From IMG/VR virus record IMGVR_UViG_3300042340_000144: 64,000 nucleotides of DNA; one strand, written 5' to 3'. Positions 27,965-56,379 of this stretch are shown in pieces. Made by a program: the position numbers and the translations under genes. The stretch's first letter is position 1, and every line of letters begins with the position of its first letter. This DNA is from a virus. Lineage: Duplodnaviria > Heunggongvirae > Uroviricota > Caudoviricetes. The notes beneath the pieces were generated by a model, which ran no database searches, was not told where the DNA came from, and worked only from the letters and a program-made list of their open reading frames with translations.

Positions 27965-29118
27965 TTACTTCACACTTGTATACACAATAGTAGTAGTTTC
28001 AATTGCACCATTATCAGGACTATTAATAACAAGTATAACAATGTCAGTATCTTCAAAGCCTTTAACAACTGTTACTCTTTGGTTAATAGTAATACCAACA
28101 CAACTATTATTAGTTAATTGTAAAGCTTGTTTGAGGTGATTAACTTCCAATGAAACATCAACAAAATCACCATCATATAGTTCTGGTTTTAATTTAGCTG
28201 GTTCTTTACTACTACCACTAAATACTTCTAACATAGTGTTTGTTTTGTCACTTGTTAGATTAATATAATCACCTTCAGTGTGAAAAGAAATAGCTAAGTC
28301 TAACTCAGATCTTTTAACTGTAATACAACCACCAGCATCTAAAGCATATATGTTATTAATAGTTTTCTCTATATTAGTAATACTATTTAAACTCTTATAA
28401 CATACAACACCCTTATCAGATGCAAACATTAACCATTTATTATTACTATTATAACCTATGGTAATAGAAGGCCCTAAGAAGGACAAAGTACTATTTAATA
28501 AAGAAGGTTTAATAGCAAATGTTATGTTACCAATACTATCTAATTTAGACATAAATAGATTATTACCAGTGGTGCCAAATTTACCACTAATACATAACTC
28601 TTTACTATCTCCTTTAATACCAATAACACTACTATCACAAGTCTTAGCAATGTCACTAACAGCAGTTAAATGTGGCACTAAAGTTGTATTATCTTCATCT
28701 AGTACATTATATTTAGTTTCACTTAAGAAGTCAGAATTAATAAATGAAACATTATCAACCCATATTGATTCTCCAATTGAACCTAAGTTTAATAGACTAA
28801 ATGTAAGTACATTATTAGTTAAACTTACTTTTAAATATTGTGTTTTAGAAGGTATCTTAGATAATAATAAAGACAGCTTTGTATGATGTATTAAACAAGT
28901 ACCTTCAACATTATTAGTGCCTTCTAAAGGTATATAAAACTTAACTCCATAACTATTATTAATAGCTGTAAATGTAAGTTTATCACCTTCAACAGGATCA
29001 ACAGTAATAGTAATTTCAACACACTGTTCTAAGGAAGAATTCATCTTAGAATTAGCTAGATTAATAGCTTGTTTAGCAGTAGTTTTAAATCTTGTTATAT
29101 CAGTAATTGCAAATAACA

Positions 29119-29119
<1 letters not shown>
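27965..29119 (-). CDS. DNA polymerase sliding-clamp (beta-clamp-like), putative
   Basis: 384 aa (beta-clamp size), located between clamp-loader and polymerase genes; no catalytic motifs; assignment by size, context and repetitive beta-rich composition. Confidence 0.4.
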
Positions 29120-29727
<608 letters not shown>

Positions 29728-29795
29728 GTATTTGTATACTGTAAATTAATATTAAATATCAAACTTAAAGTGGTGTAGTGTTATTAATATTTATA

Positions 29796-29957
29796 TTATT
29801 TCTTCCAACAAGGGGCAATTGTAAGTGAACTAAAACCACCAGTCTCACAACCAAAGTACTTATATAACATATCCCCTTGCACTTTTTCCATCAATTCCTT
29901 AAGTTTATTACCAACTTCTTCTGCCATTGGTTTATATAACTCATATACTATTTCATC
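29796..29957 (-). CDS. family A DNA polymerase, exon 2 (C-terminal 53 aa)
   Basis: Manual translation of minus strand: DEIVYELYKPMAEEVGNKLKELMEKVQGDMLYKYFGCETGGFSSLTIAPCWKK*. Joined to the exon 1 end ...IVALVH it restores motif C VHDEIV and a Pol I-like C-terminus. Confidence 0.8.
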   Translation of the reverse strand, partial: DEIVYELYKPMAEEVGNKLKELMEKVQGDMLYKYFGCETGGFSSLTIAPCWKK

Positions 29958-30213
29958 CACTTATGTTACATGTTAGTCGTTGCCACTAACACTCTTATAC
30001 TTTCATATAAGATCAGACTATATCACCAACTATAATTATTATAGTTGCCTACCGTTTGGGGCCTACTCAGGCTCTACATCCTATTGGATTAGTCGTTGGG
30101 CATTTATATTAATATATTACTACTAATAATTTAGCAAAGGGTTACCATATACATAATAGTACTTAGGCTTTCTCTTTTTAGGTATAGGTTTAAAGTGCAC
30201 AATTGGATAGTTT
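29958..30213 (-). other. group I self-splicing intron (256 nt, ORF-less) in DNA polymerase gene
   Basis: Upstream exon ends in U (CAU His). P1 pairs exon GUGCAU with IGS GUGCAC, including the terminal U.G wobble. The intron ends in G. Conserved R-like CAACGACUAA and S-like GAUAUAGUCUG elements give P7 GACUA/UAGUC. P8-like GCCUGAGUAGGC and P9-like GUUAGU-GGCAACG-ACUAAC hairpins are also present. Confidence 0.8.
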
Positions 30214-32181
30214 ATGCACTAGAGCTACAATGTTATTTCTAACTTTATATCTACTATTAATGTCTTCTAAGTAGTTTCTAACTATAGGTAATGCCATCTT
30301 TAATTGATCAGCACATATAGATTGCACAAATGCATTTGGTGCTTTACGTTGTGCTGCTGAAGAGTCTCCCTTGGAATTAGCCTCATCTATAAAAACCCAT
30401 CTGTTAGTTGGCAGTCTAATTCTTTTAGTTTTAACACCATCTCTAGCACTTTTATCAAGCCATTCTTTAAGCTTGTAATAGGTTTTAAAATATGATGATA
30501 ATACTTTAGCTGCTTCTTCTACTGAACACTTCAAGTCGTCAGATAAACCTTGTTCAGTCTTACCATATATAACACTAAAGTTTAATATCTTACCTTGAAA
30601 TCTATAATCAATACCATCATGTCCCTTTTCAGCCATCTCTCTAATAAGTTCTGGAGCATAAGACTTTAATGTAGGACATAGTGACATAGCAGTTGTAGTA
30701 TGTGGATCAGTGTAAGGATCTTCTACTGGTTTACCTTTCTTATTAAGTATTTGATTACCTGCTGCATCAAGCAGATATAACTGCTTCTTCTTCTGATAAA
30801 ACGGTGCTAAACCTGCTTCATCTTTAGCATAGGCCATAGCAGTAAGAATCTCTTCAGCAGTGTAATCAATACCAGCTATAACGTAGTTATCTCTAGCAAT
30901 GTAACCACTTCTAATATCATAGTTACCTCTAGCTACAACTTGTTGCAAGTTCATCTTATATTTCTTGTCCCCCACAATAATTGAAGAACTAGAAGACATT
31001 CTACCAGTACCAGCACCAACAGGATTAGTAGTAGCATGTAAGGCACCACTTATAGGATTAATAATATTATTATACTTACTAATCTCAGTGATTAGTTTTT
31101 CTTGTTTCTTATAAGTAATTAAAGTATTAATAACCTCTTTAGCTTCAGTTTTATTAGTAATATTATCAACATCTAAGTCTTCCTTAGAGTCTTCATCATC
31201 ATCTTCATCTTCTTCAGTTAGAAACTCTTTCATAATGACAGCATTTAAAGCTGTTAAGTTAACTTTAAACTTATTATTAATAATAGTTGCAAGCTTCTTA
31301 GGATTGTTAAATATCTTAGTAACTAGTGGTGATACAGACATACACTGATGTAATACTCCTTCATCATCCTCTTTTAGTTCAACTGATAGTGGCTGGTCAA
31401 GTTGTTTAGCAAGACTTATCTTAGTTTCATTTGATAGTAGTTCTAACTCTTTAATGAAGCCAATCATCTTATCTTTATCAATGACAAAACCCACATATTC
31501 AACTATAGCTAGAATTCTCATAGCTTCTTGATCTAAGTTAAATGCATATTCTTCATCATAGTCATTAATAAGACTTTGTTTAACATTTAATATTAAGTTT
31601 AACCATTCACTACTAACATCTCTAGCTGAGTATTCTAATTGTTCTTTTGATAGTAATGGTGAAGACCAATCAGATGTTTGTAATTCTTTACTCATTACAA
31701 CACCTGCAAAGTGTCTCATAATAGCAGCTAAACCCGCTCCTATTAACTTACCTTGTCTCCAACCAATAGATACATACAAAGTATTAAACATTACCATAGA
31801 ACAATATATATTAGTAAGTTCTAAGTTGTAATGATGTTTAATTTGTCTTATTTCAAAAGCAGCATTATGAGCCCATACTATAAACTTAGAACTATTACTA
31901 ATTAATAATAATAAAGGTGTTATATCAACTGTATTTAACTCAATAACAATAGGTGGACTATCATTACCAATCCAATTAATACTAAGTAATCTAAGCCTAT
32001 TACAATAGGGATCAATGCCACTACTAACAAGCCTAAATTCTTCTTTAACATATGTTTCAAAATCAATACCTACATTAACTATGTTATTAATAGAAAGAGT
32101 TGCAAGAGTGTTAATAACATACTCTTGCAACTCTAAATCTGTAGTAATGTAGGAATAATCATTATTCCTATGTGATAACAT
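30214..32181 (-). CDS. family A DNA polymerase, exon 1
   Basis: N-terminal 3'-5' exo-like VGIDFETY; motif B RFQGKILNFSVIYG (cf. RxxAKxxNFGxxYG). The track ORF reads through 7 intron codons (KLSNCAL*) after His, truncating before motif C. Confidence 0.85.
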
Positions 32182-32686: not shown

Positions 32687-32958
32687 TAGTTAGAGCCATT
32701 TAACAGTTCTTGATACTTACTAGTAATTCTAGCAACTTGATTATTTAGCCCTCTAATAACACTAGGTCTAGTATCTTCAATTTCTTCATCAGTTAGGTTT
32801 GTTAAAGCATTAACAAGAGTTGCAATATTAGTTCTCTTACCCTTCTTTGTAGTAATATCAGCAACTGTAGTTGCTACAGTTACAGGCACCTCACTAGCAC
32901 TAATTAAATCAACATTAGACATAGGCTGAACAGTTGTTGTAGTTTCTTCTTCAAACAT
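32686..32958 (-). CDS. hypothetical protein
   Basis: 90-aa ORF; (TTTTG)4 repeat on plus strand just 5' of its start. Confidence 0.3.
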   Translation of the reverse strand: MFEEETTTTVQPMSNVDLISASEVPVTVATTVADITTKKGKRTNIATLVNALTNLTDEEIEDTRPSVIRGLNNQVARITSKYQELLNGSN

Positions 32959-47596: not shown

Positions 47597-49066
47597 CTAA
47601 TTATCTATTACTAATAATTCACCAAATAAAGGAATATTACTCTCATAGTATTCCTTTTCTAGTACTGTCCATATAACTTGTATAGAACCTTTATTATTAA
47701 ATGGTTCTAATTCTTGAGGAACTCTTTCTAAATACAAATCTGTTAATACAACAATTAAACATACATTATTAATATCAACTTGTTCAAAACCTTTATTAAT
47801 AAACTGTTTAAATAGAGGTATAACATCAGTACCACCACCTCCTACTAAGTACTTATCTTTATGTTCTAATAACACATCAATAAGAGGTCTATCTAACTCA
47901 CTCATATTAAATAAATGAGTACCAGTAATACCATCATCAAATGTTACTAAAAGTAAATTACCAACAACTTTACTAATACTATTAATCTGATCTAAAAAGT
48001 GATTAAGACATTCTATAGAGCCATAAATACTACCAGATAAATCAACAAATACAGCTATTGTATCTGGCTGAGGTAGTCTTATATAAGGATGGTTAATAGC
48101 ACATCTATTAAAAGGGGATAAACCCATTTCATAACCATAAAACTCCTCCTCTCTAACAACATTATAATTAGTTATAATTTTATCTGATAAAGAATTAGAA
48201 GTTATTTGTTTAAGTCTATCCTCCCATCTTAAATCACTACTTTGAATAGAATCTACATCAGAAGGTATTAACTTATTAGATAACTTTCCATGCTGCTTTT
48301 TCTTATCATTTTTAATAGCATTAGCAGCCCTTTTAGCTAGATCTTTTAATGTTTCTTGTTGTTCTTCATTATTAGTAGAATCACCATCTAACACATCAAG
48401 ATCTACCTCTTCTAGCTTTATAATAAGACCAGATGGTAATGTAATAGAATCATAATCATAATCATCATTAATATTACTATTACTATTACTATTACTACTA
48501 TTACTATTACTATTACTATTATCTTGTTGTTGATTATTATTACTATTACTACTAGAATTAAACTTACTATTAGCTAATACATAAGCTAATAGTTGTTCTT
48601 CTGTCCAATTATTATCATTAATTCTAGGATGATTTGGTTCTAATAATGTACTTAAAAAGACACCTCCTAAGTCACCAAAAGTATAACCAGCTTCTTTTAA
48701 TGATTGATTAATAACAGCATCTTCAACTAAGTTAATAATCTCTTTTAAGAAGTAAGCTTTATCACTATATTGTTTATAAAGCCCTTTATTATGAAGACCA
48801 AATCTATAACTATGATTAAGATATATATGATATATCTCATGTAAAGTTAAAGTTATAAACTCACTTAACTTACTACTATCAGCCTCAATTTTATCAATGT
48901 AAGACTTGTTATACATAATAGTATTATTAGTACAAGCTGCATAAGCAAAGCTATAATCACCTATCTTAATACTAATAGCAGATAACAAATAAGCAAAGAA
49001 TGGTTCAACTTTATTAACTAATAAATATATAGTTTTATCATTAAGTTTAAAAGATAGTTTACTCAT
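47597..49066 (-). CDS. VWA-domain protein with N-terminal HExxH metallopeptidase-like domain (MoxR partner)
   Basis: 489 aa; HExxH LTLHEIYHIYLNH; MIDAS-type IAVFVDLSGSIYG; internal (SN)n tract from hexanucleotide repeats. Confidence 0.65.
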   Translation of the reverse strand: MSKLSFKLNDKTIYLLVNKVEPFFAYLLSAISIKIGDYSFAYAACTNNTIMYNKSYIDKIEADSSKLSEFITLTLHEIYHIYLNHSYRFGLHNKGLYKQYSDKAYFLKEIINLVEDAVINQSLKEAGYTFGDLGGVFLSTLLEPNHPRINDNNWTEEQLLAYVLANSKFNSSSNSNNNQQQDNSNSNSNSSNSNSNSNINDDYDYDSITLPSGLIIKLEEVDLDVLDGDSTNNEEQQETLKDLAKRAANAIKNDKKKQHGKLSNKLIPSDVDSIQSSDLRWEDRLKQITSNSLSDKIITNYNVVREEEFYGYEMGLSPFNRCAINHPYIRLPQPDTIAVFVDLSGSIYGSIECLNHFLDQINSISKVVGNLLLVTFDDGITGTHLFNMSELDRPLIDVLLEHKDKYLVGGGGTDVIPLFKQFINKGFEQVDINNVCLIVVLTDLYLERVPQELEPFNNKGSIQVIWTVLEKEYYESNIPLFGELLVIDN

Positions 49067-55568: not shown

Positions 55569-55981
55569 TGATACCAGTCTTCCCAGTTTGCTATTATTAA
55601 TTGTAACAAACTAACTACCTCTGATAAATCCCAAGACTTATCAGGACTTTTTCCAACATAATCTAATAACTCTAATAATTCACTAAAATCTATTAAATAA
55701 AAATAATTTGAATTTAGATAACATTTATTATCTCTCTTAACCATTCCTTTTAATTCCCACCAAGAACTAGTTAATTTAAAATCAAAATCATCATGTATTT
55801 TTTTATTTATAAATAATATAGCATTTAAAGAATCAATTCTATAAAAACAATGTACTTTGTCTTCAGGATTAACTATCTTACTATCTAGTATAAAATATTT
55901 ATATCTTAAAGTATCATGAGAGGTAGATTTGTTTACATAATAATCAAACTTATAAATGTATATAGGTTGTATAGTACTCAT
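55565..55981 (-). CDS. family copy 9 of 9
   Basis: 138 aa; IQPIYIY; IDFSELLELL; LLQLIIANWEDWYQ; ATGA overlap with upstream GIY-YIG gene. Confidence 0.55.
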   Translation of the reverse strand: MSTIQPIYIYKFDYYVNKSTSHDTLRYKYFILDSKIVNPEDKVHCFYRIDSLNAILFINKKIHDDFDFKLTSSWWELKGMVKRDNKCYLNSNYFYLIDFSELLELLDYVGKSPDKSWDLSEVVSLLQLIIANWEDWYQ

Positions 55982-56379
55982 TTAATCTTCAAATTAACTC
56001 CTTTTTTAGCTATGGCTCTTTTAGTATTGTAACTATTACCTTTATGTACTGCATCTATTTCTAACTGTTCTAGTATCAATAACTGCTCTTTGGTAATGTT
56101 TTTATCTGCCACTACAAGTACATTAAATGTAAAATTAACAATGCCAAATTTATTAAAATCTTCTTGTAATCCTTTATTACGGTGTTTATTAAACATTAAA
56201 CTAGTAATATGATTATTCCATCTAATAGTTAAATTAATAGAACTGCCAATATACTTTTTATTATTACAAATACAAGTAATACAGTAAATACCAACTAACT
56301 TTAGTTTTCTATAAGAATAAGGTTTACTTTTAGCTGTAGTATTATTAGAGCTTTTTTTAGTTTTAGTAGTTGTTGTCAT
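55978..56379 (-). CDS. GIY-YIG endonuclease (small, homing-endonuclease-like)
   Basis: 133 aa; GIY-YIG module VGIYCITCICNNKKYIGSSINLTIRWNNH; basic N-terminus. Confidence 0.65.
   Translation of the reverse strand: MTTTTKTKKSSNNTTAKSKPYSYRKLKLVGIYCITCICNNKKYIGSSINLTIRWNNHITSLMFNKHRNKGLQEDFNKFGIVNFTFNVLVVADKNITKEQLLILEQLEIDAVHKGNSYNTKRAIAKKGVNLKIK

Follow-up and report, generated by a model that had tools for sequence, protein, structure and literature searches.

Why does the family A DNA polymerase gene of an uncultivated tailed phage (Caudoviricetes; IMG/VR record IMGVR_UViG_3300042340_000144) stop seven codons after the histidine of its catalytic motif C, and where is the rest of the motif? 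The window, i.e., the whole 64,000-nucleotide (nt) stretch of DNA that was analyzed, contains this gene on its minus strand. An original prediction explained the early stop by a 256-nt group I intron without an open reading frame (ORF). We arrive at the same explanation: with a probability of about 0.93, ordinary group I self-splicing restores motif C of the polymerase. Four independent lines of evidence support the group I intron, namely the Rfam score, relatives that are uninterrupted or have an empty site, covariation of every core helix including the P7 pseudoknot, and the protein alignment across the junction. The intron is a fresh example of an already known intron type at a known site. 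The parts of the gene are as follows.

32181..30214, minus strand: polymerase exon 1, 656 codons, with the 3'-5' exonuclease domain and the polymerase domain up to ...NIVALVH; its last base is U (from the ORF list, Pfam, and an alignment to 22 relatives).
30213..29958, minus strand: group I (IA2-type) intron, 256 nt, without an ORF; it starts AAACUAUCC and ends ...AUAAGUG, with the terminal G at 29958.
29957..29796, minus strand: polymerase exon 2, 53 codons plus stop, DEIVYEL...APCWKK*; it is contiguous with exon 1 in the relatives P0002, P0003, P0004, P0011, and P0019.

A polymerase gene divided within motif C

The annotated 663-amino-acid (aa) ORF (30190..32181, minus strand) reads ...VRNNIVALVH and then, as predicted, seven further codons, KLSNCAL, before its stop. 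On the same strand, 256 nt past the His codon, begins the frame DEIVYELYKPMAEEV...SLTIAPCWKK* (29957..29796). The last codon of exon 1, CAT (30216..30214), and the first codon of exon 2, GAT (29957..29955), join in phase 0. The joined exons encode a 709-aa protein in which motif C is restored (...ALVH|DEIV...). In this spliced protein, Pfam detected PF00476 (DNA_pol_A) at residues 305-682 (E = 6e-39), spanning the junction, and PF01612 (DNA_pol_A_exo1, 3'-5' exonuclease; E = 5e-11). In an alignment of the last 190 residues with Taq Pol I (E = 1e-16) and with Klenow (E = 1e-13), IVALVHDEIVYE sits over LLQVHDELVLEA, i.e., over the VHDE(I/L)V of motif C with its catalytic Asp and Glu. We take His881-Asp882-Glu883 of Escherichia coli Pol I to be this motif; D882 of Klenow is a catalytic carboxylate. 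The comparison with Pol I had been proposed as a check, and it bore out that the downstream frame, which aligns to Taq Pol I after VH, reaches a Pol I-like C terminus and that LVHDEIV is regained on joining.

A protein search with the spliced product retrieved 25 close relatives, all metagenomic, and 22 were taken into the alignment. Five of them (P0002, P0003, P0004, P0011, and P0019; 65-87% identity in the best local alignment) are uninterrupted and read ...IVAL(V/I)HDEIVYEL...CWKK. Eight others stop a few codons past ALVH, and a further eight stop about 38 codons earlier in the protein alignment. Cultured phages are distant: the polymerase shares no more than 30% identity with that of any of them, the nearest (26-30%) being Microcystis Ma-LMM01-like phages and a Microcoleus phage. 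When the gene was compared with annotated phages by blastn, the sole match was a 43-nt intron core in Bacillus phage SP-15, so no close cultured relative exists among them.

The corresponding DNA was retrieved in two ways. Profile-based locus searches gave three viral and four metagenome loci; far more came from looking up the exact truncated proteins and the 54-aa exon 2 ORF (see below). The site is empty in three of the 35 mapped loci (L016, L006, and L005). In L016 and L006, the empty-site DNA GCTCTAGTGCAT|GATGAAATAGTATAT equals the exon flanks of the window base for base, which fixes the intron as 30213..29958, exactly the predicted coordinates. In the other mapped loci, this point is occupied by an intron of either of two kinds. 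One kind is ORF-less and 246-284 nt long (eight distinct sequences including that of the window); the other is 1033-1035 nt long and bears a 233-aa HNH_3 ORF (six distinct sequences). The intron is a presence/absence polymorphism in the natural phage population.

More than 25 independent contigs from metagenomes show the same split of the polymerase. An artefact of assembly or sequencing, or a chimeric insert in the window alone, would have to recur with allelic variation in many contigs that were assembled independently from different samples and sources; we regard this explanation as extremely improbable.

The gene calls contain a separate 54-aa ORF (29796..29960, minus strand; (GTG)DEIVYEL...APCWKK*), and its own GTG start at 29960 would suit a naturally split polymerase, in which the 663-aa and 54-aa products are translated apart and assemble without RNA splicing. 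This GTG is the last GUG of the intron and belongs to the conserved 3' end of the ribozyme, and the sequence ahead of it (...ACAUGUAACAUAAGUG) contains nothing like a Shine-Dalgarno sequence. The break would lie between the His and the Asp of a catalytic motif, the spacer is not intergenic DNA but an RNA structure that is conserved and covaries, and the gene is continuous in relatives. Thus, two separately translated parts are a highly implausible explanation. Many public assemblies call such a truncated 663-aa protein and an orphan 54-aa protein; the correct product would be the 709-aa enzyme.

Core structure and covariation of the intron

Searching 29700..30500 with the group I covariance model RF00028, the first check that had been suggested, gave a match at 30223..29994 (minus strand) with 74.4 bits (E = 6.3e-19; model positions 1-253 of 253), against a gathering cut-off of 50 bits. 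The Rfam alignment displays P1, P3, P4, P5, P6/P6a, P8, P9, the R-like element CAACGACUA, and the S-like element GAUAUAGUC; P2 is absent. P6a is an 8-bp hairpin, and no ORF of at least 30 aa is present on the strand of the intron, in agreement with the claim that it encodes no endonuclease. Its G+C content is 32.8%, that of the window 26.7%. Our own covariance model of the intron family, R1, scores the intron 315 bits. The elements of the structure are listed here.

30195..30219, minus strand: P1; GUGCAU of the exon and AA of the intron (30219..30212) pair with the guide UUGUGCAC (30202..30195), and the pair at the 5' splice site is U.G; invariant in 8/8 alleles.
30209..30206 with 29957..29954, minus strand: P10; UAUC of the P1 loop paired with the exon 2 start GAUG; 84% of cells paired.
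30100..30188, minus strand: P3 5' strand (CCUA..CC), P4 (AAAGAG/CCCUUU), P5/P5a, and P6/P6a; from covariation.
30090..30094, minus strand: P7 5' strand GACUA, inside the R-like element CAACGACUAA; its partner is 30020..30016.
30061..30089, minus strand: P7.1 (AUCC AAUA GGAU), GUAGA, and P7.2 (GCCU GAGU AGGC), joined by G-U-A; peripheral helices typical of subgroup IA.
30016..30053, minus strand: P3 3' strand GGUAGG, P8, and P7 3' strand UAGUC, the latter inside the S-like element GAUAUAGUCUG.
30046..30028, minus strand: P8, AACUAUAA UAA UUAUAGUU; from covariation and the Rfam alignment.
29972..30011, minus strand: P9 (CUUAUAU GAAA GUAUAAG) and P9.1 (GUUAGU ... ACUAAC); in P9.1, 4/6 pairs are changed on both sides.

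The guide GUGCAC lies at intron nt 14-19, and every allele has G as its last intron base. P1 does not vary because its 5' strand is coding sequence. Most structural claims of the original prediction held: the 5' exon ending in U, P1 with the U.G wobble, the terminal G, the R-like and S-like elements with the P7 pairing GACUA/UAGUC (which covaries), and a P9 hairpin, located in the last block above. One helix was misassigned. The hairpin with the GAGU loop (GCCU GAGU AGGC, 30072..30061), which had been named P8, is P7.2, and the real P8 is found at 30046..30028. In IA2 introns, P7.1 and P7.2 lie between P7 and P3' and are joined by G-U-A (PMC3428280). By this criterion the predicted IA2-type assignment is supported; the comparison with IA2 references comprised a profile match to Yersinia phage vB_Yep_15 (see below) and the 43-nt match to the SP-15 core.

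For the analysis of covariation, the eight distinct ORF-less alleles, including that of the window, were aligned with 10-nt exon flanks, and a structure with P1, P3, P4, P5/P5a, P6/P6a, P7 (pseudoknot), P7.1, P7.2, P8, P9, P9.1, and P10 (pseudoknot) was drawn on the window sequence. Standard pairs were found in 95.7% of the 583 cells, versus 28.6-45.1% when the 3' partners were slid by 1-3 columns. Changes on both sides were present in 30/74 pairs. The covariation score was 0.337, versus 0.153 in shuffles, and none of the 500 shuffles reached the observed value. P3, P7, and P8 were paired in 100% of cells, P6a in 93%, and P4 in 81%. Three alleles have GAUCA/UGAUC instead of GACUA/UAGUC in P7 (two compensatory pairs). 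Pairs changed on both sides were also frequent in P4 (5/6), P7.1 (4/4), P7.2 (2/4), and P8 (6/7), and P6a shows G-C/G-U variation among alleles. The minimum free energy (MFE) fold of the intron regains P1, P5, P6a, P7, P7.1, P7.2, P8, P9, and P9.1; P9 is thus present both in this fold and in the Rfam alignment.

Several points weigh against self-splicing, and each has a bearing on how the evidence is read. First, the element escapes Rfam when 16 kb or more are scanned: whole-window scans (gathering and permissive) did not report it, the gathering scan giving a tRNA only, nor did a 16-kb scan around the intron, and a match was obtained only when about 0.8 kb was given. The misses arise because speed filters act on this AT-rich sequence, and they are not evidence against the intron. 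Second, the eight alleles are mutually related, so that significance is exaggerated by the shuffle control; it is safer to rely on the slid control and on the many double changes. The structure was itself derived from one of the eight alleles, but the pseudoknot and the peripheral helices contain more double substitutions than this derivation or the kinship of the alleles can explain. Third, P4 of the window allele contains one A.C mismatch; the same P4 sequence in alleles L015 and L017 suggests that it is tolerated. Fourth, the folding energy just modestly beats that of shuffles (-57.9 kcal/mol, z = -1.47), and it is therefore not the argument for the intron. Finally, splicing is deduced from DNA sequence.

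The last point would also leave room for a decayed, nonsplicing intron, as would the P4 mismatch and the lack of an endonuclease ORF, which is expected late in a homing cycle. The locus would then be a polymerase pseudogene or yield only the 663-aa exonuclease-containing protein, and replication would depend on another polymerase. Against such decay, compensatory changes across alleles preserve every core helix, and the R and S elements are intact, as are the U.G wobble and the terminal G. Furthermore, the exon 2 protein is conserved (100% identity in L010 and L017, 79-89% in the others), which is unexpected if it is not translated, and no other polymerase match turned up among the subset of window ORFs that was scanned. 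We consider a decayed intron improbable.

The self-splicing that we favor instead would proceed as in other group I introns. The polymerase gene would be transcribed as one pre-mRNA, and the 256-nt intron is predicted to fold to an IA2-type ribozyme. Free guanosine would dock in P7 and attack the bond that follows the U of ...GUGCAU, a strand that GUGCAC holds in P1 via the U.G pair. The terminal G (29958) would take the place of the guanosine in P7, P10 would align the start of exon 2, and the exons would be joined in phase 0 to ...ALV-H|D-E-IV.... The resulting 709-aa polymerase would contain the junction-spanning peptide ...NIVALVHDEIVYELYK..., by which it could be recognized. Unspliced RNA would give the 663-aa protein, in which the exonuclease domain is kept and the motif C carboxylates are lost.

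No second copy of the intron was found in the whole window by the nhmmer profile of the family or by our own model with filters off, searches whose reach ends short of other group I subtypes. The next-best matches of our own model, 4250..4376 (minus strand; 14.9 bits, rough E = 0.006) and 32778..32919 (minus strand; 13.1 bits, rough E = 0.016), were judged to be noise: each is located within an intact ORF and extends over only about half the length of the model. Scans with exact core patterns gave two chance matches in unrelated sequence among viral contigs and none among genome contigs. As a point of method, default-filter Rfam scans can overlook a clear 74-bit group I intron in very AT-rich phage DNA, and such DNA may conceal further structured RNAs from routine scans.

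Sister introns, spread, and window context

The HNH-bearing sister intron occupies the site of the window intron in L001-L003, L007, L011, L012, and L033-L038 (for example, L001 6101..7133). Its 233-aa HNH_3 ORF sits shortly after P1. It is near-identical to the ORF-less intron in its guide region and over its last ~85 nt (P7'-P9-P9.1) and differs from it in the core between them. The shared 3' block was matched by the nhmmer profile with E values from 1.9e-19 to 1.9e-17. This mosaic is of the kind that recombination between co-infecting relatives would produce. A table of exon versus intron identities was not used to argue for horizontal transfer, because second-site introns inside the 600-nt exon stretch and one truncated contig confound it.

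The window intron contains no endonuclease gene and therefore cannot home by itself. Most likely, it persists and spreads by recombination with co-infecting relatives. A trans-acting endonuclease, such as the HNH of the sister intron, may help it to spread, and an occupied site may escape such enzymes. It is a tentative and rather doubtful suggestion that the ORF-less intron is no mere decaying remnant but confers occupied-site immunity to the sister-intron HNH, is mobilized in trans by the sister or a free-standing endonuclease, or both. If it were true, immunity and trans mobilization would amount to intron-mediated competition between phages, and the shared 3' P7'-P9-P9.1 segment and the guide would provide a recombination handle. 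In addition, a guide shared with T7-like phages (see below) would indicate intron transfer across very distant lineages at a universally conserved pair of polymerase codons.

Two free-standing endonuclease genes that had been pointed out in the window were confirmed: an HNH ORF at 2940..3551 (minus strand; PF13392, E = 1e-6) and a GIY-YIG ORF at 55978..56379 (minus strand; PF01541, E = 3e-9; PHROG "homing endonuclease", E = 2e-16). Both are about 26 kb from the polymerase gene. Trans mobilization and immunity are speculative, and the free-standing HNH resembles the intron-borne HNH only at the motif level (E = 0.04), so we claim no link between the two.

Further introns were observed in the polymerase genes of the relatives. 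A second site lies 38 codons upstream, between ...PN(G/A)FV and QG(F/V)CADQLK, at about E. coli Pol I 848/849. It is occupied in L017-L019, L023-L029, L031, L032, L037, and L038 (for example, L017 5861..7394) and in L020 (4606..4945), and it is empty in the window. The introns at this site either contain a 389-aa LAGLIDADG_3 ORF or are ORF-less and about 340 nt long. They leave a 38-codon middle exon, at which gene callers list a 49-aa ORF. In L006 (5626..7145), a 19-codon micro-exon, DEANSKGSDNSAQRKGPNG (~6820-6880), is located between two introns. The first of these follows ...ILWV(N/D), begins with a P3-P6 region like that of the window (nhmmer E = 9e-6), and holds a 314-aa ORF with LAGLIDADG-like motifs. 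Together, the relatives have at least three intron sites in about 60 codons of the polymerase gene. With at least three insertion sites in the same few dozen codons, and with ORF-less, HNH-bearing, and LAGLIDADG-bearing introns in varied combinations, the lineage offers useful natural material on how introns are gained, lost, and exchanged.

Three relatives (P0003, P0011, and P0016; alignment columns 530-576) have an in-frame, conserved 47-aa insertion after ...AEKGHK and before motif B (DFRFQGKILNF). This insertion, absent from the window (~codon 522), falls short of the length of an intein and shows conservation at the protein level.

The window covers a phage region for replication and lysis, with genes for a photolyase, a class II ribonucleotide reductase, a primase, a helicase, RecA, and the polymerase, and also a tail fibre, an endolysin, an AAA ATPase, and one tRNA-Thr. 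The latter lies at 7712..7784 (minus strand; anticodon TGT; Rfam 59.5 bits). Directly downstream of the polymerase gene, a 202-aa ORF (29119..29727, minus strand) has no family match and an acidic tail, ...IEDNDDDDDDDDDDDSSIL..., with a run of 11 Asp. The next ORF (27965..29119, 384 aa) has no PHROG match, and the position of both ORFs is conserved in relatives. A 489-aa ORF (47597..49066) matches the PHROG "HNH endonuclease", but Pfam assigns it to DUF2201 (metallopeptidase/VWA-like), which makes the HNH label doubtful.

Comparison with known polymerase introns

The T4 td, nrdB, and nrdD (sunY) introns are phage introns of subgroup IA in genes for nucleotide metabolism or replication. Their host genes and sites differ from those of the window intron, and they are not known to be related to it in sequence past the group I core.

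In collaborative homing, an ORF-less phage intron is combined with a free-standing endonuclease, for example the psbA intron of cyanophage S-PM2 with F-CphI (PMC3984707). The window resembles this arrangement: a conserved phage gene holds an ORF-less intron, and HNH and GIY-YIG genes stand free in the same genome. In contrast to it, the endonuclease genes of the window are 26 kb off on either side instead of beside the polymerase gene, and that they cut the polymerase site would be conjecture.

Three insertion sites in family A polymerases of phages are described in PMC3428280 by E. coli Pol I numbering: 674 (SPO1, SP82, Bastille, and Pf-WMP3), 676 (phiL7), and 881. The second site found here in relatives, 848/849, is not among these three. 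The introns at site 674, with I-HmuI, I-HmuII, I-BasI, and I-PfoP3I, are likewise IA2 introns in phage family A polymerases, and they too show one identical site holding different introns in distant phages (PMC3428280). The Pf-WMP3 intron, like that of the window, has no P2, and its P7.1 and P7.2 are joined by GUA (PMC3428280). These introns differ from the window intron in their site, which lies in the fingers subdomain and not in motif C, and in that all encode nicking HNH endonucleases.

Site 881 is the site of the window intron. For the T7-like phages ΦI and W31, the passage of PMC3428280 that cites Bonocora & Shub 2004 reports introns at this site, and it states that they splice in vivo as well as in vitro. 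The insertion site is not new, then: as far as that account goes, homologous introns were already documented there in T7-like phages in 2004.

Site 881 was tested directly on a T7-like genome by tblastn with the C terminus of the T7 polymerase. In Yersinia phage vB_Yep_15 (Teseptimavirus), the polymerase matched in two pieces, ...AWVH|DEIQVG.... The insert between them is 601 nt long, starts AAACTATCTCATTGTGCACATTAAA (the window intron starts AAACTATCCAATTGTGCACTTTAAA), and ends ...GATGATATAGTCCGAC...AAAG; a 131-aa ORF with an HNH motif occupies the position of P6a. Both flanks of this ORF were matched by the profile of the window family (E = 3.6e-11 and 4.7e-5). In GenBank, the HNH ORF (L039 1697..2092, corresponding to PV596791.1 16533..16928) carries the label "DNA polymerase", the polymerase itself is given as truncated at the intron, and the record has no intron annotation.

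The window intron shares with the ΦI/W31 type the family A polymerase as host gene, the insertion between the His and the Asp of motif C (E. coli 881/882), and IA2 features. With the vB_Yep_15 intron it shares a near-identical 5' end and guide (AAACTATCtcATTGTGCACaTTAAA versus AAACTATCcaATTGTGCACtTTAAA) and, by the profile matches, a large part of the core. It differs in size and content: the T7-like introns are about 600 nt long and carry an HNH ORF in P6a, whereas the window intron has 256 nt, a plain P6a, and no ORF. The phages differ as well, since that of the window is unrelated to the T7-like hosts, has 27% G+C, and has relatives on contigs of up to 243 kb. The window intron is thus an ORF-less relative of the ΦI/W31 type and does not fully belong to the mobile form. 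Knowledge of how such introns work is left as it was, and a specialist will not be surprised; what is gained is an uncultivated large-phage lineage among the hosts of the polymerase intron in motif C (881/882).

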